A stretch of 64,000 bases of DNA from a virus (taxonomy: Duplodnaviria; Caudoviricetes). Below the pieces are notes generated by a model, which saw only the letters and a program-made list of their open reading frames with translations, did not search any database and was not told the origin of the DNA. Shown piece after piece: positions 3,160 to 47,154 of this stretch (the first letter of the stretch is position 1; each line of letters opens with the position of its first letter). The stretch is taken from the IMG/VR virus record IMGVR_UViG_3300021431_004524, positions 96,001 to 160,000 of that record. One strand, 5' to 3'. The position numbers were made by a program, and so were the translations under genes.

Positions 3160-4946
3160 AATATCAGTTAAATACACGGTTCATCAGAAATGACCTGGTT
3201 CCGATTGAATTATACGATTATTCAAGTGACGAACTGCTTGGTGATGAATTTAAGGATAAAATGTTGCTTACTTGCTATTCAAATGGAGAATTAACTTTTG
3301 GTAAGGATGCAAGTATAATGGCCATGTATGAACAATATATGGTCAATGACGATTTTATATCTTCCACAGCATATAATTTTAGCACTATTTATCATCCTTA
3401 TGGTTTAAATAAAGAAAATCGCTCATTTTCAATTATTTATAACAAATATTTCAACCTTGAAGTTGAAAGAACAAGTGTTACTACTGAGTTAGTAGATGGT
3501 CAACCACAAAAAACATGGTGGTATATATGGTTTAAGGGCAGTCATTTATTTGATATAAGTGGTGGTAATACATATACATTGTATCTTACGTTTGACGGTC
3601 CTAATGGATATAATGAAGACGAGCCTTTTGAATTGGAAGTTAATGGTTCAACATTTGTAACGAGTTCTATACTTAGGTTTTCTTATAAAGATGTTTTGGA
3701 TAAGATTGAACTTAACGGTGTTAAACTTGAGGATGTTATTTTCTATGAAGAAGATGGACAAACAGTCAGTGATGTATCGAGGGTGAGATTTTTCCGTGAC
3801 AATTTCGTATTTACCACCGGCATGTTCCAATTGTTTCTTGATAGGGCAATGGCAACGATTTCTTTACCGATTGAGCAGAAATTTGCCAGTGACTTATATC
3901 AGGATGACAATATACGTGAGCATTTTACGAATGCTGAAATCAAAAAGTCCATTAATAAGATAACTGAAATGGAAAAGGATGTGTATCATCCTGTTATATG
4001 GGATTCAGAAGACGATAAAGTAAAAAATGAAGTTTATAAAATAAGATTTAATCTACATTTCAGAGAACATAGAGGTGATGATTGGCTTGCAGATGCGGAT
4101 ACGTATTGGAATGGTGTAAATCCTGCCAAATTAGAGCCTATTGATGGTTATTTTACTTATTCTAATCCAGAACAACAGTCTGATTTGCTTACGTATTTGA
4201 ATTTTACTGACAAAGATGTACGCTATCAGAAAAATAAACTAAAGAAATCGTTTTTAAGAGTCATGTTTTTTGATTCAATGAATCCGGCTAATCAGAATAT
4301 GCTTGCATATTATACGATTTTCATGGATAGTGGAAATTATTTCAGTAAATATGCAAGATATATAGAGGCTGAAGGGTATAGAAAAATCAGTAAAACACCG
4401 GATGACACCGGTAAATATGACATAAAGGATAAATTAACGGGAATAAAAGTAGATAGAGAGCCAACAATAGATAAGGACACCGATATTGATGATATTGAGG
4501 AAGTTAGATTAAGTTCTCAGTTTGTCGTAGAGGATAAATATATGTCTGATGCTTCGAGTGAAGGTTTCTATCTTTATCTGTGGAAAGATAATTTCTTAGG
4601 TACATATCCTCAGAATATATACATGAAAGTGGAGTTTAACCATGCGGGATATGGAAGAACTATTCCGTTTATGTGCCCGTTTAAAGACCCGACTAAGAAT
4701 GAGGGTAACGGTTTCAAGTCATTTAGTGAGATATTAGATGATTGGTCTAGTAATGATAAAAAATACGGTATAGTAAAGTATTCAAAATATTCATACATAC
4801 ATTTTAAGTATAAGTATGACAAGATAAGTGAGAGACACGTATATTATCTTGATGATAAATTTTATGGAACTAAGCCGGATAAAGGTGGTGTCCATTTTGA
4901 AGATAACGCCATAACAATAAATTTATATGAAGCGAAGATAGTTTAA
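3153..4946 (+). CDS. hypothetical protein, probable virion structural protein
   Basis: 597 aa ORF overlapping upstream stop. Confidence 0.55.
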   Translation: MLKYQLNTRFIRNDLVPIELYDYSSDELLGDEFKDKMLLTCYSNGELTFGKDASIMAMYEQYMVNDDFISSTAYNFSTIYHPYGLNKENRSFSIIYNKYFNLEVERTSVTTELVDGQPQKTWWYIWFKGSHLFDISGGNTYTLYLTFDGPNGYNEDEPFELEVNGSTFVTSSILRFSYKDVLDKIELNGVKLEDVIFYEEDGQTVSDVSRVRFFRDNFVFTTGMFQLFLDRAMATISLPIEQKFASDLYQDDNIREHFTNAEIKKSINKITEMEKDVYHPVIWDSEDDKVKNEVYKIRFNLHFREHRGDDWLADADTYWNGVNPAKLEPIDGYFTYSNPEQQSDLLTYLNFTDKDVRYQKNKLKKSFLRVMFFDSMNPANQNMLAYYTIFMDSGNYFSKYARYIEAEGYRKISKTPDDTGKYDIKDKLTGIKVDREPTIDKDTDIDDIEEVRLSSQFVVEDKYMSDASSEGFYLYLWKDNFLGTYPQNIYMKVEFNHAGYGRTIPFMCPFKDPTKNEGNGFKSFSEILDDWSSNDKKYGIVKYSKYSYIHFKYKYDKISERHVYYLDDKFYGTKPDKGGVHFEDNAITINLYEAKIV

Positions 4947-6809
4947 ATGAGTAAGATACAGAAAACAATATGCAGAGAGGAACTGAAGTCACGTATTCCG
5001 GGATTGTTTGCCTATATAGAGGAAAATGATGCCGGTGAATTTAAACTTCATAAAGCAACGGACTCATTAAGTGGTTGTTATGGTAAAATTATCGAAAATA
5101 TGACTGTAAACGCCTCGTTAAAGGTTAATGGTGAGGATATAATAATGAGTGGTAATGTGTATTCGTACAGAACAATTATGAATGCTTATTATCAATATAA
5201 AAATAATAGTATTGATACCGTAGAGGATACTAATTTTTTTAAATTTGTCGATGATGCCATTGGAAAGGTAGAGATAGATTTCAATACACTTGGTTTGGAT
5301 GAGGAAAAGAATGACATGGTTCCACATTATATCTATTTGGCAAATACAAGAAATCTGTTCAGCCAATATTCAAAACTGAAAATTGTATATGATTATTATA
5401 CAGGTGGGTATACTGAAATTGATGGGAAACTTGCACCAAGTACTTTCGATATTAATAATTTAGAAGGGGATATTTGCTGTTTGTGTGCCAAATATGTAAG
5501 AATGGGTGGCACTATAATGTATAATAAATTAAATGGATTAATTTCTGAGGCTGAAACTGTCGCAAATAGATATTACGGCTATGTAGCAAATAATGATAAT
5601 TTGACTTTGAATTTAAACGTGTCATTAAAACAGTCAATTCATGATATTGGCTATCTTTCATGCTACTTACATGAATGGGTTGGAGGTGAAGAACATTTTA
5701 AAGACGAATTGTACACTTATAATGGATGTACATATAGATGTATGGAAAATAACCACGATAAATACAATGAAGAATTGATGAGATTTGAATTTGATGATAC
5801 TAAATTCAAAAAGATAACGGATTTGTATGATGGTGAAGGACAAGAAGAAATATATGATAAGTTAATTTCTTCATATAATCCATTTGGAAATAAATGGGTA
5901 ATTCGTGATGAGGATGGAAACATATTAACTGATGATAAATCTTATAATTTATCTGGTTCTGCCGACAGTAAGTTAAAATCATTAAGAAAATATAAGAATT
6001 ATATTAACGGTGAGGATAAAGAGGAAAAACCGAGTGATGATGAGGATTGGCTTTATTTCTATCGTGTTGGTACTGTTATTAATTATACAACAGTTACAGA
6101 TAATTCTGGAAACATAGCAGATATCGATAAACTTGCTGAAGGTATATTGGAACCGGCAACAGATGTTAATAAACTTGCAGCCTATGGCAATGTAATTAGT
6201 AATATTGAACCAGACCAAGACCAGACAAAACGAACAATAACGTTTGAATATTACATAAATGCACATTTAAAAGCCAAAAAAGTTATTACAAAAAAAGATG
6301 ATGACGGTAATACATTATATATGTTTGATGGATTTTATGCCGATGAAGATGACAAATATCATGGTGTAAAATATACGGAGACATATACATACGATGAAGG
6401 TGGAGAATTGGATAAACTTGTCAATGGTCAAGATACTATAACATTTGACGATTATGTAAATGATATTGACGATAGTATAACAACATATAATAAATATCCA
6501 TTTAGACTAACCGATTCAATTGTTTATTATAACAAGGAATTGCCTACGCAAATTGTTAGTATTCCGTTTATAAAAAGTGATTATGAAACCACTATAAAAA
6601 ACGAAACTGACTATTTATTTGCAGAGACGTTTAAGACGGACTATTTGGGCGATATAACCTATAAACCGAAGGTCGATAATAATGTAAGAATAGACAGAGG
6701 TAATTATTCAGCGTTTGAAAGGCATTTGAAACTTGCCGAGGTTAAAACTTTGAATGACCTTGTTGAGTATAGTAACGGTTCGTTTTTTAACGTGCAGAAA
6801 GTGAATTAA
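4947..6809 (+). CDS. hypothetical protein, probable virion structural protein
   Basis: 620 aa ORF abutting upstream stop. Confidence 0.55.
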   Translation: MSKIQKTICREELKSRIPGLFAYIEENDAGEFKLHKATDSLSGCYGKIIENMTVNASLKVNGEDIIMSGNVYSYRTIMNAYYQYKNNSIDTVEDTNFFKFVDDAIGKVEIDFNTLGLDEEKNDMVPHYIYLANTRNLFSQYSKLKIVYDYYTGGYTEIDGKLAPSTFDINNLEGDICCLCAKYVRMGGTIMYNKLNGLISEAETVANRYYGYVANNDNLTLNLNVSLKQSIHDIGYLSCYLHEWVGGEEHFKDELYTYNGCTYRCMENNHDKYNEELMRFEFDDTKFKKITDLYDGEGQEEIYDKLISSYNPFGNKWVIRDEDGNILTDDKSYNLSGSADSKLKSLRKYKNYINGEDKEEKPSDDEDWLYFYRVGTVINYTTVTDNSGNIADIDKLAEGILEPATDVNKLAAYGNVISNIEPDQDQTKRTITFEYYINAHLKAKKVITKKDDDGNTLYMFDGFYADEDDKYHGVKYTETYTYDEGGELDKLVNGQDTITFDDYVNDIDDSITTYNKYPFRLTDSIVYYNKELPTQIVSIPFIKSDYETTIKNETDYLFAETFKTDYLGDITYKPKVDNNVRIDRGNYSAFERHLKLAEVKTLNDLVEYSNGSFFNVQKVN

Positions 6810-33747: not shown

Positions 33748-35412
33748 ATGGCAAAGTTTAATTCAAAGAAAGAGGCTGTAAAGCCAACAGTGATTAACGA
33801 GATGGGTGAGAAGGCTTTTGAACTTACAGCAAAGGAAAATCTCGTACAGAGTGTGTTAACCACATTCCTTCAGGGACAGTACTATGAAAGTGAGTCAGAG
33901 GAAATGAAGAAAATCCTCGATTGTGTTGAGAAGGTTGACCCATTGTTCGTGGCAAAACTTGCATTATATGCACGTAATGAGGGTAATATGAGGTCATCAA
34001 GCCATCTGCTTGGTGCAGCATTGGCAAAGCATATTGCCGGTCAGGAATATGCCGCACGTTTCTATAACAAACTCATTGTACGTCCGGATGATATGTCTGA
34101 GGTGCTTTCATGCTATGGTTCATTGAACGGTATGAATCTTACCGATAAGTCACTTCGTAAGATTCCAAACTCTATCAAGAAGGGATTCAAGGCTGCACTT
34201 GAGCGTCTCGATGCTTATCAGATTGACAAATATAAGATGAATAGCCGTCAGGTGAAACTCATTGACCTTGTTAACCTGTTGCACCCAACACCAACACAGA
34301 AGAATAAGGAGGCATATAAGCGTCTTATCAACGGTGAGTCTCTTGCTGACCTTTATGAGAGCAAGGTGTTGGAGAAGGAAATGTCAAAGGGTGGCCAGAC
34401 AGCCAAGACTGAGGAAGAGAAGACTGCCGCCAAGGAGGAAGCAATCTCTTCTGTTCTTGACAATGTTAAGGGTATGCCAATTTTCAACTTGCTTCGCAAC
34501 TTGCGTAACATTATCCTCTATGCGCCAAACCGTATCGACGATGCTATTACACAGTTGACTACAAGGGAGAAGATTGTCAATTCAAGACTGCTTCCATTCC
34601 GTTTTGCAACTGCATACAATGAAATTGAGAATATGAGTTATGAGGCAAAGAAGCCTTCATCTTCAATCGCTTTGGAAAGCGAAATCAGTAAGATGAAACT
34701 CACTCAGAACGAGTTCGCTACTATTAAGGCAAAGGTTCTTAAGGCTCTTGAAGATGCACTTGAGTATGCTTGTGAGAATATTCCTGAGTTGGAAGGAGGA
34801 ACCTACATCCTTTGCGATGACAGTGGTTCAATGAGAGGTGATATGGGTGGTCATTCACGTGTATCTGCATTCTCAAAGACGACATCATCTACAATTGGTC
34901 ACTTGTTTGCCGCAATGGTCGGTTGGAAACAGAAGGATATTTATATCGGTCTGTTCGGTGATAGGCTCATTCCAGTGGAAGTTGACCGTTCTAAGAGGAT
35001 GCTCGATTTCTGTAACTACATGGACAGTAAGGGTGGCTCATGTGGCGGTGGTACAGAGGCCGGTATTTATGACTTCCTTCGTCAGTGCATTAAGGAGAAG
35101 AAGAAGGTGGATAACGTAATCGTCTTCTCTGACTGTCAGATTGGTTCCGGTGCAGAGACCGCATGGTATGGCGTGGATAGTAGTGACCGTAGTGGACGCT
35201 TCCAGGACTTGTTCAAGGAGTTCAAGAAGATTAACCCAATGTGTAACTTCATTGTGTGCAATCTTCGTTCGGCTAAGGGCAACTCAGTATTCCACAAGTC
35301 ACAGAGAATACTTAACATCGCTGGTTGGAGTGAGAAGATTTTCGACGTGATTAAGTCCAATACCGTTGGTATGGAGGCAATCATCAAGAAGATTGAAGCC
35401 ATCGAGATATAA
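33748..35412 (+). CDS. rsr: Ro60/Rsr TROVE-domain RNA-binding protein
   Basis: KLALYARNEGNMRS, LLRNLRNI, SRLLPFRF, vWA MIDAS DDSGSM, VIVFSDCQ, IAGWSEKIF. Confidence 0.92.
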   Translation: MAKFNSKKEAVKPTVINEMGEKAFELTAKENLVQSVLTTFLQGQYYESESEEMKKILDCVEKVDPLFVAKLALYARNEGNMRSSSHLLGAALAKHIAGQEYAARFYNKLIVRPDDMSEVLSCYGSLNGMNLTDKSLRKIPNSIKKGFKAALERLDAYQIDKYKMNSRQVKLIDLVNLLHPTPTQKNKEAYKRLINGESLADLYESKVLEKEMSKGGQTAKTEEEKTAAKEEAISSVLDNVKGMPIFNLLRNLRNIILYAPNRIDDAITQLTTREKIVNSRLLPFRFATAYNEIENMSYEAKKPSSSIALESEISKMKLTQNEFATIKAKVLKALEDALEYACENIPELEGGTYILCDDSGSMRGDMGGHSRVSAFSKTTSSTIGHLFAAMVGWKQKDIYIGLFGDRLIPVEVDRSKRMLDFCNYMDSKGGSCGGGTEAGIYDFLRQCIKEKKKVDNVIVFSDCQIGSGAETAWYGVDSSDRSGRFQDLFKEFKKINPMCNFIVCNLRSAKGNSVFHKSQRILNIAGWSEKIFDVIKSNTVGMEAIIKKIEAIEI

Positions 35413-38016: not shown

Positions 38017-38172
38017 TCAGGTGTAGCTCAGAGGCAGAGCAACGGACTGTATACAGAGTAAACTGTAAAATCAAACTCAGCAATTAAAAATGGAAACATT
38101 AATGATTTCCCGGTTCGACTCCGGGTTGTTGGGCTAATCCGTAGGTCGAGATTTCGAAATTCTCCACCTGAG
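38017..38172 (+). tRNA. tRNA-Asn(GTT) with 84-nt insert (38051-38134)
   Basis: TCAGGTG/CACCTGA acceptor, G73, short variable loop; removing insert gives CT-GTT-AA. Confidence 0.75.
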
Positions 38173-38180
38173 CATATATA

Positions 38181-38467
38181 GAACAAGTACAGACCACTGA
38201 GTAGGAACTGGGGGAAGTGATAGGTAAATGCTAGATTCATATTTATCACGCAGACGGACTCAAAGTAGTACCGACAGACCAGTGAAAGGTGTTGGTTAGG
38301 TTAATTCCTAAAACGTGAAGAGCAGCGGATTCTGTGAAGAGCCATATGACACGGAACACAACAAACGTCGTAAAACAGCGCAAGTGCCTAATAGCGGGTT
38401 ACCTGATTAAATCTGAATAAGATGATAAAAGGTTGCAAAAGTCTGTACCTCGTCAATTTACTTGTTC
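38181..38467 (+). ncRNA. unidentified multi-helix ncRNA candidate
   Basis: GAACAAGTA/TACTTGTTC and GTACAGAC/GTCTGTAC closing helices, several internal hairpins, no plus-strand ORF. Confidence 0.5.
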
Positions 38468-38638
38468 TTTTAATTTTAAAAATAGTTAAATTTCTTAACT
38501 ATCATTTTTTGTTTTAAAAACTCCGAGGGAAGGAAATGGTTGGACTTACGGCAAATGCTAGGAACCTGATGAACCGTAAGACAAAGGTATGTTGTAGGAG
38601 TTGCAGGTGAAACGGACAACAGTGTAGGAGTTTTTTCT

Positions 38639-38711
38639 GGGGGAGAAGCTAACTTAGTAGAAGCGCTGGACTGAAAATCCAGAGGAGGTGGAGCGTAACC
38701 ACCCTCCCCCA
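38639..38711 (+). tRNA. tRNA-Phe(GAA)
   Basis: cloverleaf, CTGGA-CTGAAAA-TCCAG; atypical T loop AGCGTAA. Confidence 0.85.
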
Positions 38712-38720
38712 CTTTTTATT

Positions 38721-38888
38721 GGGAGGTTATTCCGTAAGTGGTAGCGGGGCTGACTGTATACAGAGTAAACTGAAAATCAAACTTCGTATTGGTCGAGTGG
38801 CTAAAACTTGCATACGTTGGTTCGAATCCAACATACGAAGCAAATCAGCTGCTTAACGGCTCGGGTGGTTCGACTCCATCACCTCCCA
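38721..38888 (+). tRNA. tRNA-Tyr(GTA) with 84-nt insert (38758-38841)
   Basis: GGGAGGT/ACCTCCC, long variable arm, A73. Confidence 0.8.
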
Positions 38889-39160
38889 CATCTAAATTCA
38901 GAACCTATGTTTTGCTGTGTCAGAGTAAATAAACAGTAGGTGGGATATGGTATGTCACCTTGAGAGAGGAAACAGAGAGAAAACGGCGAAATAGACGGTA
39001 GGCAAGTTCGTTCTTCGTTAATATCAGAATAAACCATTAATACTAGTTAAGGGTAATGAGGTTTTGTAGGTAAGGAAACCGCCACACTAAGTTTGGAAAC
39101 AATAAATAAGAACTAAGTGAAATGGTAAGTTGGTTTATGGATTTCCAACGTAAATTTTAT

Positions 39161-39235
39161 GGGCTGCTCATATAATGGTTATTATGCCGGCTTTGCAAGC
39201 CGGTCATCTGGTTTCGACTACCAGGCGGTCCACCA
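39161..39235 (+). tRNA. tRNA-Ala(TGC)
   Basis: loop TTTGCAA, G3-U70, encoded CCA. Confidence 0.9.
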
Positions 39236-39240
39236 TCAAT

Positions 39241-39314
39241 AGATGCTTAGTTCAGTTGATTAGAATATCGGTCTCCAAAACCGAGGGTCGGAGGTTTGAG
39301 TCCTTCAGCATCTG
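39241..39314 (+). tRNA. tRNA-Trp(CCA)
   Basis: TCGGT-CTCCAAA-ACCGA, G73. Confidence 0.9.
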
Positions 39315-39324
39315 CATTTTATAT

Positions 39325-39396
39325 GGCGCATTCGTCTATCGGCCAGGACACAAGATTTTCATTCTTGGAAGAGCAGTTCGATTCTGCTATGCGCTA
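39325..39396 (+). tRNA. tRNA-Glu(TTC)
   Basis: CAAGA-TTTTCAT-TCTTG. Confidence 0.88.
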
Positions 39397-39412
39397 CTAT
39401 TAGTTTATCAAA

Positions 39413-39485
39413 CGGGATATGGTGTTTAATGGTAGCATCCTTGGTTTGGGACCAAGTGGAGTGGTTTCGAGTACCGCTATCCCGA
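39413..39485 (+). tRNA. tRNA-Pro(TGG)
   Basis: CTTGG-TTTGGGA-CCAAG, CGG start. Confidence 0.9.
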
Positions 39486-39493
39486 CAAATGAT

Positions 39494-39565
39494 GGCCGGT
39501 TCGTCTATCGGTTAGGACACAAGATTTTCATTCTTGGAAGAGGGGTTCGATTCCCCTACCGGCTA
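39494..39565 (+). tRNA. tRNA-Glu(TTC), second copy
   Basis: same anticodon arm as 39325, different acceptor/T stems. Confidence 0.9.
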
Positions 39566-39576
39566 CTTTTATTTTC

Positions 39577-39648
39577 GCCTCCTTGGGTGAGTGGTTGAGC
39601 CACCGGTCTGCAAAACCGGGCACCCCTGTTCGAATCAGGGAGGAGGCT
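39577..39648 (+). tRNA. tRNA-Cys(GCA)
   Basis: CCGGT-CTGCAAA-ACCGG, U73. Confidence 0.9.
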
Positions 39649-39663
39649 CATATATAATTAATT

Positions 39664-39815
39664 GCCCTGTTAGCTCAATTGGTAGAGCAGCGCACTTGTA
39701 TAATGGAGTAAACCATTAATAAAAATCAAGACTATATAGATAGGTATTATAATAAGGTTCGAATCCTTTATATAGTCCAATGCGCAGGTTGTTGGTTCGA
39801 TTCCGACACAGGGCT
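39664..39815 (+). tRNA. tRNA-Thr(TGT) with 79-nt insert (39700-39778)
   Basis: GCCCTGT/ACAGGGC, U73, GCGCA/TGCGC anticodon stem. Confidence 0.8.
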
Positions 39816-39888
39816 CAAAAATAAAAAAGTTCAAATACTTGAAATATTTGAAAAATCCTTTATATTTATAATAAAGTGTAGTTCGAAT

Positions 39889-40482
39889 ATGAAGGTAAAT
39901 TGGATTAACGAAAAAGAAACTATTGAGAAACTTATAAAAGAAGGAGTATCATATGAACGTATTGGTAGGCAGTATGATGTTACAGGTGCCGCAGTTAAAA
40001 AGGCAGCAAAAAAATTAGGTATCGAACTTAAATATAGAAGGGAAATAAATCCCAACGAACATTTCAATAAAGGAGTTAAACAAATACATATTTGTTTAAA
40101 TTGTGGTAAAGAATTTGAACATAGTAGAAACACAAAAAATAAATTTTGTTCACACACTTGTCAACAGACATATCGACGTAAACAATATATAGAACGATGG
40201 AAAAATGGCGAAGAAAATGGATTAAGTGGTGAATATAATTTATCAAAAGTAATTAAACGTTATCTAATGGAAAAACATAATTACGAATGTGAGAAATGTG
40301 GATGGGGTGAAAAAAATATTTACACAAATACAATACCATTGGAAATACATCATATAGACGGTGATTATACTAACAATAAAGAAGAGAATCTACAGGTTTT
40401 ATGCCCTAACTGTCATTCTCTTACTGAAACACATAAATCACACAATAAAAAGGGCAGAAAGGGAAGAAAAAAATATAATTAA
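39889..40482 (+). CDS. free-standing HNH endonuclease (HTH + Zn finger + HNH)
   Basis: CLNC/FCSHTC, CEKC, LEIHHIDGDYTNNKEENLQVLCPNCHS. Confidence 0.9.
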   Translation: MKVNWINEKETIEKLIKEGVSYERIGRQYDVTGAAVKKAAKKLGIELKYRREINPNEHFNKGVKQIHICLNCGKEFEHSRNTKNKFCSHTCQQTYRRKQYIERWKNGEENGLSGEYNLSKVIKRYLMEKHNYECEKCGWGEKNIYTNTIPLEIHHIDGDYTNNKEENLQVLCPNCHSLTETHKSHNKKGRKGRKKYN

Positions 40483-40491
40483 TAGATAGTC

Positions 40492-40576
40492 GGCTTCATG
40501 GTGGAATTGGTAGACACGTCAGGTTTAAGCCCTGATGGGCATTGTGCCTGTTCGGGTTCGAGTCCCGATGAAGCCA
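40492..40576 (+). tRNA. tRNA-Leu(TAA)
   Basis: TCAGG-TTTAAGC-CCTGA, long variable arm. Confidence 0.9.
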
Positions 40577-40608
40577 CTGAATAATGGGTGTTTAACTCAG
40601 TGATAACT

Positions 40609-40682
40609 GTTGGCATAATTCAGTAGGTTAGAATGTCACGCTGATACCGTGAATGTGGGTGGTTCGAGTCCATCTGCCAACA
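40609..40682 (+). tRNA. tRNA-Ile(GAT)
   Basis: TCACG-CTGATAC-CGTGA. Confidence 0.85.
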
Positions 40683-40690
40683 CTTTTTAT

Positions 40691-40765
40691 AGTGCGTTAG
40701 TTCAGTAGGTTTAGAATGCCACACTGTCACTGTGGAGGTCGCCGGTTCGAATCCGGTACGCACTG
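40691..40765 (+). tRNA. tRNA-Asp(GTC)
   Basis: CCACA-CTGTCAC-TGTGG, G73. Confidence 0.9.
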
Positions 40766-40797
40766 CTTAACTATCTGATTATCAGTCAGTTATGTTT

Positions 40798-40951
40798 GAC
40801 TCCGTAGCTCAGTGGTAGAGCACCTGACTTTTTTAACGGAGAGAACCGTCTTAAACACATTTCCATGTTTAAAAGTGGTGAAACAGATGAAAGTCCGACT
40901 CTTTCACATGGAACAATCAGGGAGTCATGGGTTCAAGTCCCATCGGAGTCA
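40798..40951 (+). tRNA. tRNA-Lys(TTT) with 82-nt insert (40833-40914)
   Basis: GACTCCG/CGGAGTC, CCTGA/TCAGG anticodon stem. Confidence 0.8.
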
Positions 40952-40963
40952 CAAAGTTAATAT

Positions 40964-41039
40964 GGGACAGTTGGCCGAGAGGTTAGGCGCAGGATTGTGG
41001 TTCCTGTTTACGTTGGTTCGAACCCAACACTGCCCCCCA
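40964..41039 (+). tRNA. tRNA-His(GTG)
   Basis: CAGGA-TTGTGGT-TCCTG, G-1:C73, encoded CCA. Confidence 0.9.
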
Positions 41040-41044
41040 TAATT

Positions 41045-41117
41045 GCACCATTGGTGTTAGCGATTAGCATATCAGACTTCCAATCTGAAGGGGACAGTTT
41101 GAATCTGTTATGGTGCT
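41045..41117 (+). tRNA. tRNA-Gly(TCC)
   Basis: TCAGA-CTTCCAA-TCTGA, U73. Confidence 0.9.
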
Positions 41118-41124
41118 CTAATTT

Positions 41125-41196
41125 GCAGTATTCGTATAGTGGTTATTACACCTGCTTGCCATGCAGGAGACGAAGTTTCGATTACTTTATACTGCT
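41125..41196 (+). tRNA. tRNA-Gly(GCC)
   Basis: CCTGC-TTGCCAT-GCAGG, U73. Confidence 0.9.
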
Positions 41197-41204
41197 CTAA
41201 TTAA

Positions 41205-41685
41205 TAGAAATTGACGATATAAGTTGAAATTAATTCAGCAATGTTGATGCAATGAAGATTATCATTGAAATCTGAGTTTATGCAGCGGTGGCCAGGTAAT
41301 TGCATCAGTAGTGGGTCAAACGACACTATGGTCAAATTGTTGGATTTACTTGCAGGGATTTCGACTTTTTTATGGAGAGTAAGGTGGCGCACTCCGCCGG
41401 AATAAAACGTCACGCTTATAAGTTGGAATTTTTAAATGCCTATTAGGACACCGAAAGGGTCGGGAGTAGATTTCATCCAAAAATTCGTATGAGGATTTCG
41501 AAAGGGTATTTAATCTTCGAAGGATTTCAACTTTTTTGATATGGTTTTATTCTGACTTCGAGTAATGGCAATTCGGCAGAAAGCATTTGTAGGTTGTTAG
41601 ATGCTATAGAGTGATAATGGTTGGAGTCCATAATGTCGTTTTGTGTTATCTACTGCTTGGAGAACTCTAATTAAAACTATTTTTG
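41205..41685 (+). ncRNA. unidentified large structured ncRNA candidate
   Basis: long-range helix AAGTTGAAAT/ATTTCAACTT, TGATGCAAT/ATTGCATCA; no plus-strand ORF; between tRNAs. Confidence 0.45.
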
Positions 41686-41700
41686 CTTTATTATATAAAT

Positions 41701-42226
41701 GGAGACATAAGCCTAATTGGTAAGGCAGTGGTCTTGAATTTAATTCGAGTGCTATGGCGAGAAATCCCATAGTAGAATCTCCCTAAAACGGTGGAATTCC
41801 TTAAATAATAAGATACACTTATCTTACTACTTGTCAAATATTTAAGTGTATAATACTCGAAATTGAAATTAGAGGTGACTCCGAACCACAACGTTTAGTA
41901 ATTCCATAAAAATTAGACAAGGGAATTAATGTGGATTAACGTACTTATTATTTCAGAGACAGTTTATGCTTTAACTATAGTTCAAATACTGCATGAACAT
42001 TAAGAGAACACTACACTAACCAATAATGTGTAAGGATAATACCGTTCGAAAATAACTTATATCGGGTGGGTAAACTCTCTACAGAAGTGATGGTAATAAG
42101 GGGAGAGGATAAGTTATGAACGTGTAGAGACTGAACGGGAGATACCTAAGTTGAAATTAAAGGCATCACAATAGTGCGTGTCAGGCTTGCAAGCATTTCA
42201 ATATGGTAATAATAAACTGTCTTCCA
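41701..42226 (+). pseudogene. tRNA (Ser-like) pseudogene with truncated group I intron
   Basis: tRNA 5' half to U34, P1 with U-G, P (AAAACGGTGGAA), Q (AATACCG), R (GTAGAGACTGAACGGG); S element and most of tRNA 3' half not found; acceptor 3' strand TGTCTTC remains. Confidence 0.7.
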
Positions 42227-42230
42227 TTAA

Positions 42231-42320
42231 GGAGGGGTAACCGGTGTGGTATACCGGCGCGGTCTTGAAAACCGTTGGTTCGTGTAACAAGCGAATGGGA
42301 ATCGTGCTCTCACCCCTCCG
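42231..42320 (+). tRNA. tRNA-Ser(TGA)
   Basis: GCGGT-CTTGAAA-ACCGT, long variable arm, G73. Confidence 0.85.
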
Positions 42321-42382
42321 CGTTTTTTTTTTTGTAAAACATCAACAAGAAGAGAAAAATTCTTAATAATGGTTGGACTAAA

Positions 42383-42469
42383 GGAGAGTGAACCTGTCGG
42401 GGATAGGGGCTGTCTGCTAAACAGTTCGTCCGGAGTATTTTGGATGTGGGTCGGGACCACCGCTCTCCG
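42383..42469 (+). tRNA. tRNA-Ser(GCT)
   Basis: GCTGT-CTGCTAA-ACAGT, long variable arm, G73. Confidence 0.85.
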
Positions 42470-42480
42470 CAGAGTTATAT

Positions 42481-42602
42481 GGGCATATGGTGTAATGGAC
42501 TAACACGGCGCAAGCAAGGCGACTCTCACGCTCAGTGGCTTGAGCAACCACAAAAAAGAGAGTGTTGAAGTACAGATTTCGGTTTGAATCCGGATGTGTC
42601 CT
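42481..42602 (+). ncRNA. tRNA-like RNA with anticodon arm replaced by a nested structure
   Basis: acceptor GGGCATA/TGTGTCC, D and T arms present; central ACTCTC-[GCTCAGTGGCTTGAGC]-GAGAGT. Confidence 0.6.
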
Positions 42603-42636
42603 CTAAGTTTAACATTAAAGAAGAAAGGATAGAATT

Positions 42637-43308
42637 ATGGATTCAAGTTGGAAATACCCAAGAACGTTTCACGTCCCGTTCTCAGAAGGGTTACAGAATG
42701 ATGACAGACGTGTTGATGACGATTGGTTTTCCTATTTGAAGGGAAAGGAACTTATTCTTAGCGAAAAATGCGACGGTGAGAATAATTCTATATCTCGTTA
42801 TGGTGTTTATGCTCGTTCTCATGCAGCACCTACAAGGAATCCTTGGTCAATAAACCTATGGGGAAATGACGGACTTTATTGGAGAGTTAAGGATTTGATT
42901 GGTGAAGATGAAATGATTTACGGTGAGAACTTATATGGTGTTCATTCAATTGAATATAACAGGTTGAAGGAATATTTCCATATGTTTGCCGTAAGGGATG
43001 AAGAGAAATGGTATTCTTGGGATGATGTTTCAGAAATGGCACAGATTCTTGATTTGCCGACTGTTCCTGTATTGGAAAGACGTTCATTTGACACTGAGGA
43101 TGAATTAAAGGAACGTGTATTATATTGGATGACGCAAGGCAGTAGGTATGGTGATACTATTGAGGGTGTTGTTATCCGTAATGCAGATAGTTATCCGATT
43201 GATGAGTTTTGCCATAATGTTGTGAAGTATGTACGTAAGAATCATGTTCAGACTGACCAATTTTGGGCAAAGAATTGGAGAAAAGCAAAAATAACGGAAT
43301 ATTATTAA
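42637..43308 (+). CDS. ATP-dependent RNA ligase family protein
   Basis: KYPRTFH, motif I EKCDGEN, GENL, EGVV, KYVR. Confidence 0.85.
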   Translation: MDSSWKYPRTFHVPFSEGLQNDDRRVDDDWFSYLKGKELILSEKCDGENNSISRYGVYARSHAAPTRNPWSINLWGNDGLYWRVKDLIGEDEMIYGENLYGVHSIEYNRLKEYFHMFAVRDEEKWYSWDDVSEMAQILDLPTVPVLERRSFDTEDELKERVLYWMTQGSRYGDTIEGVVIRNADSYPIDEFCHNVVKYVRKNHVQTDQFWAKNWRKAKITEYY

Positions 43309-43327
43309 CAACTTTTAATGAAAAATA

Positions 43328-43359
43328 TTTGTGTATTTCAATGATTATTTGTACTTTTG
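43328..43359 (+). promoter_or_regulatory. Bacteroidota promoter for tnpB
   Basis: TTTG-N20-TACTTTTG. Confidence 0.75.
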
Positions 43360-43383
43360 CACTCAGTTAATGAAAAAAAAATT

Positions 43384-44589
43384 ATGAAAAGAGGTTATAA
43401 GTATCGTATTTATCCAACAGAAGAGCAGAAGAATTATTTTAAGGTATGTTTTGCAGCAAACAGATGGTTTTGGAATTATGCTTTAGATAAAATCAATGCA
43501 CAATATGAAAAAGATAAAACACATTTGTCAGCACAATATAAGATTGCACGTGATTTACCATCCTTAAAAAAAGAGGAAAGTACATGTTGGATTGGGCACT
43601 GTGATGCAATGTCTTTTATTTACACGGCGCAAGCACTTGATGCATCTTTTAAGAAGTTTTTCAAGAAAGAAGGTGGGTTTCCAAAATATAAGTCGGCTAA
43701 ATATGATAATTCTTATACAATACAAATACAAGAAAAAGGTAAAACAATCATTGATTGGGATAAATCAATGATAAGAATAGGTAAAGCCGGCGATGTAAGT
43801 ATTGTTTTGCATAGGAAATTTAATGGGGTTATTAAATCGGTAACAGTTTCCAAGAAGAGTTTTGACTATTACGAAGTTTCACTTCTTGTTGATGATAATT
43901 TCGTCAAGCCGTCCGAAAAACGTATAACTACGTATGATGGTACTGTTGGAATCGACCTTGGGGTAAAATCCGATTCAAATGTAATTTTAACTGATGGCAC
44001 TAAATTTCCTGCAATTGAAGTAGGACGTGAAACTAAACGTATTGCAAGACTTAGACGTAGACTTTCCAAGAAGGAATGGAAAAAAACCGGTGAGAAAAGA
44101 TTTTCCAAAAAATATGGTAAGGAAGTTGATGTAAAAGTTCCCTCCAAGAATTACATAAAGTTAAAGAATCGTATTGCGAAACTTGAAGATGAAATTGTCA
44201 GAAAACGTACTTATAATACGCATATGATTACATCTTATGTCGCTAAGAATCCAAACGTCAATACGGTCTGCATTGAAGATTTGAATGTTAAGGGAATGGC
44301 TAAGAACCATCATATTGCAAAGTCCGTAAGTAATGCGAATATGGGTGAGGTTAAAAGGCAACTTGAATATAAATGTGATTGGAATGGAAAGAATCTGGTT
44401 ACTGTTGACAGATTTTATGCAAGTTCACAAATCTGTTCGTGTTGTGGGTTTAAAAACGAAAAGGTGAAGAATTTGTCGGTAAGACAATGGGTCTGTCCGA
44501 ATTGCGGGGTACATCATGATAGGGATGTGAATGCCGCACTTAATATTAAAAATGAAGGATATAGAATTATAACTGAAGGAAAACAGTGA
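43384..44589 (+). CDS. tnpB: TnpB-family RNA-guided nuclease (candidate CRISPR-associated)
   Basis: YKYRIYPTEEQ N-terminus, RuvC GIDLG / IEDL / DRDVNAALNI intact, CSCC-CPNC Zn finger; no transposase adjacent. Confidence 0.92.
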   Translation: MKRGYKYRIYPTEEQKNYFKVCFAANRWFWNYALDKINAQYEKDKTHLSAQYKIARDLPSLKKEESTCWIGHCDAMSFIYTAQALDASFKKFFKKEGGFPKYKSAKYDNSYTIQIQEKGKTIIDWDKSMIRIGKAGDVSIVLHRKFNGVIKSVTVSKKSFDYYEVSLLVDDNFVKPSEKRITTYDGTVGIDLGVKSDSNVILTDGTKFPAIEVGRETKRIARLRRRLSKKEWKKTGEKRFSKKYGKEVDVKVPSKNYIKLKNRIAKLEDEIVRKRTYNTHMITSYVAKNPNVNTVCIEDLNVKGMAKNHHIAKSVSNANMGEVKRQLEYKCDWNGKNLVTVDRFYASSQICSCCGFKNEKVKNLSVRQWVCPNCGVHHDRDVNAALNIKNEGYRIITEGKQ

Positions 44590-44597
44590 ATAAAAAA

Positions 44598-44760
44598 CCC
44601 TACCCAGGTGTATCGGGGATGTTAAGTCTGTGGATTACCCTCTAATGGATGAACGTGATTTATCACCTAAAAAGTTATGGTAAGTTGAATCAGAAAAACG
44701 GTTTACAACAAGTAAACGACCACCTAAGAAGCGATTTTTAGGTAACATTTTTAAAAGTAA
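44598..44760 (+). ncRNA. omegaRNA/reRNA-like scaffold (possible tracrRNA)
   Basis: AAGTCTGTGGA...TTGAATCAGAAA core typical of tnpB 3' regions, hairpins CGGTTTAC/GTAAACG and ACCTAAGAA/TTTTTAGGT. Confidence 0.65.
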
Positions 44761-44791
44761 TGTGGCGTAATCAATGCTTTATTGGAAATAT

Positions 44792-45197
44792 GGTGTATGC
44801 TGTATTAAAATGTTAGGTAAATACAACTGGAGTTGGTTGCATCCATTAGCGACAAAGCGGTGTATGTCATATTAAAATGTTAGGCGAATACAACAGGACT
44901 TCAAACCTACCCTCGAAAAGAACGGGTGTATGCCTCATTAAAATGTTAGGTGAATACAACCAGTAGTTAAGAGCCTCTTAAAGCAATGGGGTGTATACCA
45001 CATAAAATGCTAGGTAAATACAACTCAGACAGTCGAATGTTTCTTTGTCCTTTGGTGTATACTACATTAAAATGCTAGGTAAATACAACTTATTTCCTCT
45101 TGTTTCTTCGCTATTGAGGATGTATGTCACATTAAAATGCTAGGTGAATACAACGACCCGCTATCAAGGTCTTCCAATTGTTTGGTGTATGTTACAT
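44792..45197. CRISPR. CRISPR array, 6 full + 1 partial 36-nt repeats, six 29-31 nt spacers
   Basis: consensus GGTGTATRYNNYATTAAAATGYTAGGYRAATACAAC at 44792, 44859, 44925, 44990 (35 nt), 45054, 45119, 45184 (partial); unique spacers. Confidence 0.92.
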
Positions 45198-45211
45198 GAG
45201 ATTTGTATTAC

Positions 45212-45282
45212 TGGACCATGGTGTAATGGTAGCACCACAGATTTTGGTTCTGTCAGTTTCGGTTCGAATCCGGATGGTCCAA
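45212..45282 (+). tRNA. tRNA-Gln(TTG)
   Basis: ACAGA-TTTTGGT-TCTGT. Confidence 0.9.
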
Positions 45283-45288
45283 CTATTT

Positions 45289-45360
45289 TGGAGATTGGTG
45301 TAATTGGCAACACGTGACACTCTGGATGTCAAATTATCAGTCCGAGTCTGGTATCTCCAA
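45289..45360 (+). tRNA. tRNA-Gln(CTG)
   Basis: TGACA-CTCTGGA-TGTCA. Confidence 0.88.
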
Positions 45361-45367
45361 CTAATTT

Positions 45368-45412
45368 GGCTTCATGCCGATACTCGTCCGGGTTCGAGTC
45401 CCGGTGAAGCCA
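45368..45412 (+). pseudogene. tRNA-Leu-derived minihelix (acceptor + T arm only)
   Basis: GGCTTCA/TGAAGCC-A identical to tRNA-Leu 40492; D and anticodon arms absent. Confidence 0.7.
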
Positions 45413-45484
45413 CTAAACAAATAGTCATTTAGTATTGAAAAACTGTTAAACTATATTTATATTAATATTAAATTTAATTAAAAG

Positions 45485-45784
45485 ATGGATGATATACTTG
45501 ACAGATATTTAGATGAAACACTTCTTACTGAGGAAGAGAGACAGAAAGTACAGCAACTTGCCGGTGATTATAATAGATTAGATATGGATTTATTTATAAG
45601 CAGAATTGGGGGTGCTGAAAAGATTGAAGAAATGAGGCGTATCAATGACAAGGCTGATAGAATGTATGTTGTCGATGGCGTAGTACATCATAAATCTGAC
45701 AAAACAAATGAAGATATTGAGGAATGGAAGAAAGGTTTTATGGAAGGATTTGAAGAAGCATACAAAAGATTAAACATGAAATAA
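45485..45784 (+). CDS. hypothetical protein
   Basis: 99 aa ORF. Confidence 0.55.
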   Translation: MDDILDRYLDETLLTEEERQKVQQLAGDYNRLDMDLFISRIGGAEKIEEMRRINDKADRMYVVDGVVHHKSDKTNEDIEEWKKGFMEGFEEAYKRLNMK

Positions 45785-45806
45785 AAGATATATTTATCTA
45801 TAATAT

Positions 45807-46206
45807 GGGGATAACAGGAATTTGACAGCAAGTATGAAATGGTCTGTAAGCATGCAGTGTGAAGACTATTACACCTAAATCAATTGGTCGAACAATTAAT
45901 TGGCGAAACAACTTACGCTCTCGCTGCCTAATCGAAGTACAGTAGGTTACTGGCTTAATTCCCTTACAAGGTGAGGGAACGAGACATCACTTAATGAGTT
46001 ATTTTCTGAGACTTGTTAGTATAGTGGTGCAGGGAAATCAGAAATAGTCGGTCTATGCCTTGATGGATTGATGAAATTTAAAAGGATAAGAATGCAATTT
46101 GGTAGTCCAAGTCGTGTTGCATTATGAAAATCAAAATTGAACTAAGCATGTAGAAAGCATATTGTTTCCTTGTTTGGACGAGGTTTCGATTACCTCTATC
46201 TCCACA
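45807..46206 (+). ncRNA. ssrA: tmRNA
   Basis: GGGGATA/TATCTCC-A acceptor with G3-U, T arm, tag ORF 45902-45931 GETTYALAA*. Confidence 0.95.
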
Positions 46207-46215
46207 AATTAGGAT

Positions 46216-46301
46216 GCCGTTGTACCCGAACTGGTATAGGGGACAGTCTAAGGAACTGTTGCGACGGAAGTTGCGTGAGGGTTCGACTCCCTCCAACGGC
46301 A
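46216..46301 (+). tRNA. tRNA-Leu(AAG)
   Basis: ACAGT-CTAAGGA-ACTGT, long variable arm, A73. Confidence 0.85.
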
Positions 46302-46311
46302 CAAACATGAT

Positions 46312-46463
46312 GGTTCCGTAGCTCAGTTGGATAGAGCAACTGCCTCTACAGAGTAGTTCACTGTGACGAACTTCATTACATGGTATTTAGAATACTTAAC
46401 GGAGCGAAACCGTGTGTAATGGCTCTAAGCAGTAGGTCATGCGTTCGAGCCGCATCGGAATCA
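46312..46463 (+). tRNA. tRNA-Arg(TCT) with 78-nt insert (46346-46423)
   Basis: GGTTCCG/CGGAATC, D loop AGTTGGATA (A20), ACTGC/GCAGT; anticodon depends on insert boundaries. Confidence 0.7.
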
Positions 46464-46497
46464 CAAAATAATTATATTTATAATAAAATAGAGTGAA

Positions 46498-47154
46498 ATG
46501 ACAAATTTTGGTATTCCTGAACGAGTTGGTGAATATGATATAAAAATAGGTGAGTACTCTGTTCATGTAAGTATTCATCAAATGAATGCCCGTATGTCTA
46601 AAATGGATTTGTTGGGTACAAGAGGAACAATTGGTGGAACTAAGAGTATATTAGGACATGATATAACCGTTACTGATAAAGAAGGAAATATAGTTAAAAG
46701 TATAAAGGATATCGATGAAAGATATTTTACTGAATATATGGAATCTATATATAAAGAATATATGGATATAAATCCAGAAAAATTGAGTAATAAACTATAT
46801 AGTTTTATATGTTATGGAAATGGGCGTAGATTATCGATTCCAACAGGAGGGGTTAAAATATCAAGTATAGGCGATAATTTCGTTAAGGTAATATATGCCA
46901 TTGATAAATGGGGTGTTGATATAGATGGACTTATAACTGACCTTACTAACATAGGATGTACAGTAAAGAGACTTAAAGACAAAAATATAAGGTCATTCAG
47001 TTGTTTTGTATTGTCGGTATTAATACCGAAGCAGTTAAGTATAACTGAAGGAATAGTTGGTAAGAGATTGATAAGATTAACGGAATCTAATTTGCGTATG
47101 ATAATAGAAAATTCAGTGAATAGTGTACTGAAAGAAATGAAAATAGGAAAATAA
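46498..47154 (+). CDS. hypothetical protein with C-terminal LTESNLRMIIENSV motif
   Basis: 218 aa ORF. Confidence 0.6.
   Translation: MTNFGIPERVGEYDIKIGEYSVHVSIHQMNARMSKMDLLGTRGTIGGTKSILGHDITVTDKEGNIVKSIKDIDERYFTEYMESIYKEYMDINPEKLSNKLYSFICYGNGRRLSIPTGGVKISSIGDNFVKVIYAIDKWGVDIDGLITDLTNIGCTVKRLKDKNIRSFSCFVLSVLIPKQLSITEGIVGKRLIRLTESNLRMIIENSVNSVLKEMKIGK

Follow-up and report, generated by a model that had tools for sequence, protein, structure and literature searches.

Group I introns occur in the anticodon loops of bacterial, plastid and phage tRNAs (e.g. tRNA-Leu UAA), where they are mobile and, if spliced, silent. To our knowledge, self-splicing group I introns are the only kind known in the tRNA genes of bacteria and their viruses. 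Introns that were called enigmatic have been described in the tRNAs of Lak phages (Devoto et al. 2019, Nat Microbiol; PMC6784885). In that paper the Thr intron was said to be one that 'may encode a tRNA', intron presence was found to differ between genomes and Table S6 recorded 'no hit in rfam'; most boundaries were put at the canonical 37/38 site, and no general architecture, covariation, C74 rule or mechanism was given. In the later papers that we searched, we found the existence of the Lak tRNA introns restated and nothing mechanistic. Here we analysed a stretch of 64,000 nucleotides (the window; bases 96001-160000 of IMG/VR virus contig IMGVR_UViG_3300021431_004524, hereafter G000, 235,653 bp, 34.6% GC) in which five tRNA genes carry short anticodon-loop inserts. 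An earlier reading of these letters, made without database searches (the sequence-only reading), had found the inserts (78-84 nt), all of which were confirmed, and had taken them to be undescribed. Judged by sequence and predicted fold, they are instead new members of the published but mechanistically unexplained Lak family.

The five split genes lie in an RNA array at 38.0-48.1 kb of the window, where ~25 tRNA genes and a transfer-messenger RNA (tmRNA) gene are densely packed. We compared them with two further IMG/VR contigs, G001 (150 kb, with a syntenic RNA array) and G002 (about 302-303 kb, ~82% complete), with the Lak megaphage genomes Lak-A1 (MK250015.1), Lak-B1 and Lak-C1/A2, and with metagenome contigs (L-numbered, such as L080, L090 and L115). 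Two covariance models were used, R1 built from the window Asn insert alone and R2 built from 8 sequences. The split genes and their introns, with insertion points in tRNA numbering, are:

38017..38173, plus strand: tRNA-Asn(GUU) gene; exons 38017-38050 and 38135-38173, ending G73-C74
38051..38134, plus strand: Asn intron, 84 nt, at 35/36; R2 score 89.3 bits
38721..38889, plus strand: tRNA-Tyr(GUA) gene with a long variable arm; exons 38721-38757 and 38842-38889, 100% identical to those of the G001 orthologue
38758..38841, plus strand: Tyr intron, 84 nt, at 35/36 (or 36/37, a one-base ambiguity); matched by R2
39664..39816, plus strand: tRNA-Thr(UGU) gene; exons 39664-39699 and 39779-39816; Rfam tRNA match of 53.8 bits across the intron
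39700..39778, plus strand: Thr intron, 79 nt, at 36/37, 9+4 bp; R2 score 61.3 bits
40798..40952, plus strand: tRNA-Lys(UUU) gene; exons 40798-40832 and 40915-40952; Rfam tRNA match of 59.7 bits across the insert
40833..40914, plus strand: Lys intron, 82 nt, at 36/37, hairpin loop AGAGAA, T-loop UCCGACU, 8+5 bp; R2 score 68.2 bits
46312..46464, plus strand: tRNA-Arg(UCU) gene; exons 46312-46345 and 46424-46464; A20-type D loop
46346..46423, plus strand: Arg intron, 78 nt, at 33/34; CUA, a hairpin with a 9-nt loop, T-loop AGCGAAA, 9+4 bp and a final C

R1 recovered the Tyr, Lys and Thr introns end to end (E 1.6e-6 to 0.015), and R2 scored the Asn, Tyr, Thr and Lys introns at 61-89 bits. The single design that the sequence-only reading had seen in all five inserts is upheld for these four by the models, whereas the Arg intron was matched by neither R1 nor R2 and stands as a structural analogue; its closest look-alike, found by eye, is the G002 Thr intron at ~L071:16456-16536 (T-loop AGCGAUA). 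We also scanned both strands of the whole 235,653-bp contig with a descriptor (a T-loop and a T stem of 4-6 bp directly abutting an acceptor of 7-9 bp). It returned exactly these five introns, a free minihelix at 45367-45412 and three chance matches that are not tRNA-like. The minihelix, an acceptor and T arm standing directly after tRNA-Gln(CUG) with weak Rfam mascRNA matches, faces a complete tRNA-Leu(CAA) at the same place in G001 and is therefore probably what an internal deletion left of a tRNA gene.

A covariance-model search of phage genomes, which the sequence-only reading had proposed, found relatives in Lak, G001, G002 and metagenome contigs: R2 has 21 distinct members (E 2e-14 to 4e-5), from the window, G001, G002, Lak-A1, Lak-B1, Lak-C1/A2 and metagenome contigs. 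R1 matched the Lak Phe and Gly introns at 36-39 bits, and R2 gave Lak Phe, Asn (published as Tyr) and Gly 65-72 bits. The Lak introns share with those of the window an N-Y-A start, the hairpin, the A-rich linker, the 13-bp stack and the final C; both are non-group-I anticodon-loop inserts of about 80-140 nt, without an Rfam family and with presence/absence alleles restoring a 7-nt loop. The window phage differs in belonging to another, much smaller lineage, in carrying five introns and in its other hosts (Lys, Arg and true Tyr). A strict family pattern gave no true member in 185,579 prokaryote species (one genome each), and members are known from phage or metagenome contigs only. A module-only pattern found 84 stretches in IMG/VR, which, all but the G001 and G002 loci, had no minihelix and were unrelated. 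Within G000-G002 the strict module motif was confined to introns; a permissive hairpin-plus-linker pattern was uninformative in these AT-rich genomes.

Standard pairs fill 97.9% of the cells of the R2 alignment and 16 of its 18 pairs show changes on both sides, as against only 28-46% pairing in slid controls; the alignment was fitted to R2, so the figures favour the structure, but the gap to the controls is still clear. The stem covariation that the sequence-only reading had proposed is therefore real. In all 19 parsed members the acceptor and T stem add up to 13 bp (8+5 or 9+4), the last base is C and a GG is present in the D remnant, and the count of 13 bp followed by C had been read correctly in all five window inserts; the Lak Thr intron, judged by eye outside the parsed set, has 7+6 bp. 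The start, first read as NTA, is N-Y-A in the family, mostly AUA (ACA in L122 and L126, and C at +2 in three members). A hairpin of 4-6 bp follows, with a G-C closing pair and, in most members, an AGUAAA or AAUAAA loop, and then an A-rich linker, AAAUCAA or AAAUUAA. In the Asn intron these parts are AUA, the hairpin CAG/AGUAAA/CUG, AAAAUCAAA, the 13-bp minihelix and C.

The tRNA-like part that follows the linker (the cargo) keeps G53:C61 in 21 of 21 members, UUCRA in nearly all, and the GG. The rest varies from a bare minihelix to a full cloverleaf (as in Lak Thr) or a class II-like tRNA. In the window, the Tyr cargo alone passes the RF00005 gathering score of 29 (34.5 bits at 38783-38840); the others fall below it, keeping G53:C61, UUCRA and the acceptor without D and anticodon arms. 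Selection seems to act on the top half of the cargo only, the part read by RNase P, RNase Z and the CCA-adding enzyme. Three further tRNA inserts were seen in the comparison contigs: one at G001:136097-136262 (L070:98-263) with a nested full tRNA ending A73-C74 and then a second hairpin, and two of ~51 nt in G002 (L071:15402-15524 and L072:44-169) that have no T arm and both contain ACAGCAA. In L090 (Ga0114960_10012229, 4893-4973) a hairpin GGG/AGUAAA/CCC with AAAUCAAA makes up the entire spacer between two ordinary tRNA genes and ends at the 5' end of tRNA-Lys, as its 5' leader; from this single case the intron 5' module may derive from an inter-tRNA spacer.

The boundaries are proven by a natural deletion. 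The tRNA-Thr alleles of Lak-A1 and Lak-C1 are identical save for an exact 114-nt unit, UUACAAUC...CAUAGAGC, which starts UUA and ends C, and the allele without it reads CUUGUAA. For the window genes, the alleles available were syntenic intron-less paralogues in G001, where Thr(tgt), Lys(ttt) and Arg(tct) stand without introns at the corresponding positions of an array with matching gene order, Arg(tct) coming after tmRNA and Leu(aag); these fix the identities of the window Thr, Lys and Arg genes. Exact removal of the introns gave canonical cloverleafs. Together with the intron-less alleles and synteny, this bears out the sequence-only reading that removal restores a 7-nt loop matching the identity of the tRNA body. 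After removal the tRNA-Asn, which has near-identical copies in L080 and L115, shows U1:A72, G73 and a CGGACUGUUAAUCCG arm, and its exon junction would read ACGGACUGU^UAAUCCGU. By the N-Y-A...C rule the Lak genes published as Tyr(GTA) would read Asn(GUU), in keeping with their G73 and short variable loop. ARAGORN in intron mode found four of the five split genes with slid boundaries and called them Ser, Gly, Val and Lys, which shows how far tRNA identity depends on the boundary rule. Three more genes of the array stood out: a class II tRNA-Ser(GCU)-like gene at 42375-42470 (approximate, by eye) and a tRNA-Gly(UCC) at 41045-41117 (found by Rfam only), both missed by ARAGORN, and a tRNA-like gene with a roughly 50-nt insert at 42482-42605.

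Insertion points vary: 33/34 in Arg, 35/36 in Asn and Tyr, and 36/37 in Thr, Lys, Phe, Gly, Leu and Arg(CCU), so the splice sites are set by the intron and not by the host tRNA. The preceding exon base is U throughout the window, as first noticed, but in the family it can also be A (Phe hosts) or C (Lak Gly). A proposed link to the targets of anticodon nucleases proved weak, since hosts also include Thr, Phe, Gly and Leu; insertion at 33/34, 35/36 or 36/37 does not match the cut sites of PrrC, colicin E5 or colicin D. Minimum free energy folds of the Thr, Lys and Asn precursors gave the host cloverleaf with the hairpin and the minihelix. The location and small size of the inserts recall archaeal or eukaryal introns cut by a splicing endonuclease at a bulge-helix-bulge (BHB). 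We give this virtually no credence, as a script test could draw no BHB at any of the five sites, and neither the splicing endonuclease EndA (PF01974, tRNA_int_endo) nor RtcB was found in any of five phage genomes, with the EndA search matching four of four archaeal control genomes and the RtcB search matching a Bacteroides control. In line with the sequence-only reading, Rfam searches also assigned the introns to neither group I, group II nor any other family.

The introns have moved between tRNA genes. The Tyr genes of G000 and G001 have identical exons and 5' modules, with cargoes that differ by a 31-nt indel and compensatory acceptor changes, and the G000 Tyr intron shares 90% identity with the one in G001 tRNA-Phe. 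These comparisons show an intron that transfers from one tRNA gene to another, with a tRNA part that is exchanged or decays. The split Thr and Arg genes are each followed directly, on the downstream side, by an open reading frame (ORF):

39889..40482, plus strand: free-standing HNH endonuclease gene; PF01844, PHROG HNH
46498..47154, plus strand: ORF of 218 aa

The HNH protein is a possible mobility helper, and at the corresponding place G001 has neither it nor the Thr intron. The pattern is inconsistent, though: HNH genes are scattered through the arrays, and in G001 an HNH_2 ORF abuts the intron-less Lys gene. The 218-aa ORF had no match in Pfam, NCBIfam or PHROG and no homologue in G001, G002 or Lak.

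Presence/absence polymorphism and movement between tRNA genes would also be expected if the inserts were miniature hairpin-ended DNA transposons of the IS200/IS605 kind, related to the TnpB gene in the array (43384-44589) and excised at the DNA level; subterminal hairpins and the lack of a target duplication fit this too. We regard it as very improbable. The Y1 transposase (PF01797) is present in none of the five genomes, the two end hairpins (left hairpin and T arm) are unrelated by eye, and the inserts are fixed in the assembled genomes; moreover, the long-range acceptor covariation and the tRNA-specific features point to selection on RNA.

The TnpB gene (Cas12f1-like TNB, OrfB_IS605) has homologues in G001, G002 and Lak-A1, and after it, at 44760-45200 and likewise inside the tRNA cluster, comes a regular array of ~36-bp repeats (GGTGTATG...TTAGGTAAATACAAC) with ~30-bp spacers. 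Elsewhere in the contig, at G000:80637-83174, are an ORF with a LAGLIDADG/Hint insertion (an intein-type homing endonuclease) and three DUF4379/Mom-like paralogues; the genome is rich in selfish elements.

We found a counterpart of the invariant last C in the ordinary tRNA genes of these phages. N74 is C in 14 of 18 such genes in G000, 17 of 20 in G001, 27 of 27 in G002 and 27 of 27 in Lak-A1 (85/92 overall), N75 is almost never C (A or U), and no CCA is encoded. As ordinary genes thus encode C74 without CCA, the terminal C of the intron corresponds to C74 of the nested tRNA. A -1:73 pair is formable in about 70% of the same genes, which identifies the 13th bp of the minihelix as the -1:73 pair of a pre-tRNA; the contrast with the normal 12 bp drawn in the sequence-only reading stands as a count and becomes less exotic. 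The match indicates that the cargo is a decayed pre-tRNA running from -1 to C74 and that the 3' splice site falls where phage tRNAs have their natural 3' boundary. The intron therefore joins two parts, a 5' module that is conserved (N-Y-A, then a hairpin whose loop reads A-R-U-A-A-A, then the linker) and a decayed pre-tRNA.

The cargo retains exactly the signals for RNase P and 3'-end processing, which could also mean that the inserts are never removed to give a working tRNA, the genes being disabled, or acting as carriers that release a mini-tRNA decoy or cofactor (e.g. for a Ro60/Y-RNA system) while the halves are discarded. A Ro60 (TROVE) gene just upstream of the array and the free minihelix at 45367-45412 would suit a carrier. 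The exons, on the other hand, are intact and fold as canonical tRNAs, the inserts are never outside the anticodon loop, and this loop returns on exact removal to 7 nt, in agreement with body identity and synteny. Among the tRNAs that we found in the contig, four of the five amino acids concerned (Tyr, Thr, Lys and Arg) have no gene besides the split one, and the Tyr exons are identical between genomes with diverged cargo. The cargo decays freely save for its top half, so that its sequence is itself not the product. We therefore judge a decoy or carrier quite improbable, and hold it likely that the window inserts are truly spliced introns of the Lak family.

How they would be removed can be set out as a scheme. 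The precursor would fold as the host cloverleaf, with a three-way junction of anticodon stem, module hairpin and minihelix in the anticodon loop. The enzyme that makes the N73-C74 ends of the other phage tRNAs (of RNase Z/BN type) would then cut after the terminal C, and a second endonuclease would cut one or two nucleotides 5' of the module hairpin. Both cuts would leave a 3'-OH and a 5'-phosphate, with the halves staying paired, and an ATP-dependent Rnl-type ligase would seal the anticodon loop. The same design would allow the intron to hop between tRNA genes and to be excised from any anticodon-loop position. The ligase we have in mind is encoded within the array:

42637..43308, plus strand: ATP-dependent RNA ligase gene, 223 aa, motif KCDGEN; PF09414 E 6.8e-27, PHROG RNA ligase

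We lean slightly towards a 3' cut by a tRNA 3'-end enzyme. The sequence-only reading had already let the nested mimic direct this cut, a view strengthened by the identity of the terminal C with C74; a simple scheme of RNase P plus tRNase Z fails at the other end, as the 5' splice site lies far upstream of the mimic, 25-30 nt from the RNase P site of the nested tRNA. RNase E/G sites follow a U+2 rule, and N|N-U-A at the foot of a hairpin resembles them, though as a resemblance only; a 5' cut by an enzyme of this type is unlikely. Two other ways of making the 5' exon end were rejected. RNase P acting on the module would, by established substrate rules, meet a hairpin that is too short, without RCCA and with the T loop ~18 bp away in the coaxial stack, and exonucleolytic trimming was dismissed on account of the variable length, 2 to 5 nt, by which the exon projects past the anticodon stem.

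From its sequence, the ligase at 42637..43308 is a candidate exon sealer. It has a 97% identical orthologue in G001, the only genome found in a search for related loci, and gave no match in a PDB sequence search. The co-occurrence of introns and ligase, for which the sequence-only reading had suggested a test, holds in part: PF09414 is present in four of the five genomes (G000, with two copies, G001, Lak-A1 and Lak-B1) and absent from the 302-kb G002 contig. Rnl1 gave nothing significant in any of the five. CCA-adding enzymes are present in G002 and Lak. ORF scans around the array turned up no kinase or phosphatase, though no search was aimed at those families. Whether the PF09414 protein seals the exons is close to an even call, tipped slightly against it.

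Several observations weigh against the scheme. The G002 contig (~82% complete) has no match to PF09414, Rnl1 or RtcB, and nonetheless carries at least three family introns, in Phe, Arg(CCU) and Thr(UGU). The proteins common to G000, G002 and Lak-A1 (sigma factors, ClpP, NrdD, Hsp70, Dam methylase, TnpB and DUF4379/Mom-like proteins) include no RNA endonuclease. RNase P acting on the nested tRNA would leave a 25-30 nt module on the 5' exon, and no enzyme was found for the 5' cut; the likeness to RNase E/G sites is weak, +3 being A and not U and +2 being C in three members. For Bacillus RNase Z, CCA acts as an anti-determinant to which C74 belongs, and the 3' enzyme may therefore be something other than a classical RNase Z. 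The Arg intron is a divergent member, of the same design as a structural analogue only and with a non-canonical T-loop. Finally, the words transcript and spliced are absent from the text of the Lak paper, which holds no transcript data on splicing (PMC6784885). Taken whole, intron-defined cuts made by proteins and sealed by an Rnl-type ligase are our best reading, held tentatively and at a little under an even chance.

Alternatively, the intron could be a small ribozyme of a new kind that cleaves itself at one end or both, or splices itself, the exons then being joined by the cleavage reaction run in reverse or by the RtcB of the host. The three-way junction would serve as its core, made up of N-Y-A, the linker rich in A, the conserved loop of the hairpin and the terminal C. 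The unpaired bases are indeed strongly conserved though the stems have all changed (AGUAAA loop, closing G-C, AAAUCAA, A+3 and terminal C), and in our reading the cut, placed behind a helix and one unpaired C, has the topology of a hammerhead site. No nuclease was found to be shared by the phages, G002 has no Rnl-type ligase and a Bacteroides control genome has RtcB. Against this, the Rfam 15 ribozyme families (hammerhead, twister, pistol, hatchet, HDV-like and others) gave no match at E<=5 over 10 kb or E<=10 on the intron alone. The junction strands take in exon nucleotides in numbers that vary between 2 and 5 on either side, which is hard to reconcile with a catalytic core of fixed form; cargoes can be anything from a minihelix alone to a complete cloverleaf, and their conserved T loop, GG and C74 are features read by proteins and RNase P. 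We think a ribozyme improbable. A hammerhead drawn by eye on the Asn intron (J1 CUGUAUA) was discarded: its 'CUG' is C32-U33-G34, which is absent in other hosts, and GAAA and the core motifs are absent.

Other genes and RNAs of the region were noted alongside. The Ro60/TROVE protein (PF05731, PF25045) is encoded at 33748-35412 of the window, just upstream of the tRNA array, and from gene content the Ro60 gene and the RNA ligase look like a phage set for repair or quality control of RNA. In Lak, the nearest homologue of the window ligase is split (Lak-A1, MK250015.1 290564-294061; the same in Lak-C1), with N- and C-terminal matches ~3.2 kb apart on the same strand and PF09414 fragments and stop codons between them; as read from its sequence, the gene is either interrupted or broken. 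A structured RNA of ~300 nt (X1), with the closing helix AACAAGUA...UACUUGUU, lies at 38181-38470 of the window, at G001:125274-125780 and at about 495,900-496,200 of MK250015.1. It is close to tRNA-Phe in all three genomes, its core is about 81% identical between the window phage and Lak megaphages, and it had no Rfam match and was not found in G002; no conserved complementarity between it and the intron 5' module was seen by eye.

The family is wider than Lak: a single genome offers five host tRNAs, and relatives occur in several lineages of huge phages. It is ORF-less and mobile and is found in huge gut or rumen-type phages. To the published description we add an architecture rule, a covariance model, covariation statistics, exact splice sites and the C74 link, together with transposition between tRNA genes, decay of the cargo and re-read tRNA identities. 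A specific prediction follows: the 3' cut of the intron would be the phage tRNAs' own 3'-end cut. If splicing were indeed carried out by tRNA-processing enzymes and a ligase, both the splicing pathway and the type of mobile element would be new. Since bacterial-mode tRNA finders miss or mis-assign split genes, phage tRNA inventories and inferences of codon reassignment are affected.

Several known systems can be set beside the window introns. With group I introns they share mobility and the anticodon-loop location in the bacterial world; those, however, are >200 nt long with a P1-P9 core and a terminal G, whereas the window introns measure 78-84 nt, end in C and have no Rfam group I match. Archaeal introns too are mobile between tRNA genes and positions. 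BHB introns, removed by EndA or Sen with RtcB or Trl1, are likewise short, located in the anticodon loop and protein-dependent, as we infer for the window introns, which lack a BHB and EndA and have an ATP-dependent ligase family in place of RtcB. Elements shaped like tRNAs (MALAT1 mascRNA, mitochondrial tRNA punctuation and bacterial YrlA mimics) recruit RNase P and RNase Z to define ends. The likeness here is a tRNA-shaped element within a longer RNA, and a Ro60 gene near the window array; the flanks of those elements, by contrast, are not known to be rejoined, and none is known to lie inside a tRNA. In phage T4, the anticodon loop is cut by PrrC, healed by Pnkp and sealed by Rnl1, with 2',3'-cyclic phosphate ends. 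Sealing of an anticodon-loop break by a phage RNA ligase is what we propose for the window as well; the T4 damage, however, is inflicted by the host and needs Pnkp, and the window ligase belongs to PF09414 and not to the Rnl1 family. There is room, though we would sooner doubt than assert it, for a tRNA splicing route of a third kind, peculiar to the viruses of bacteria, in which the intron brings its own decayed pre-tRNA and a leader hairpin and would be excised by the end-processing machinery and a hairpin-directed endonuclease before resealing by an Rnl-type ligase.

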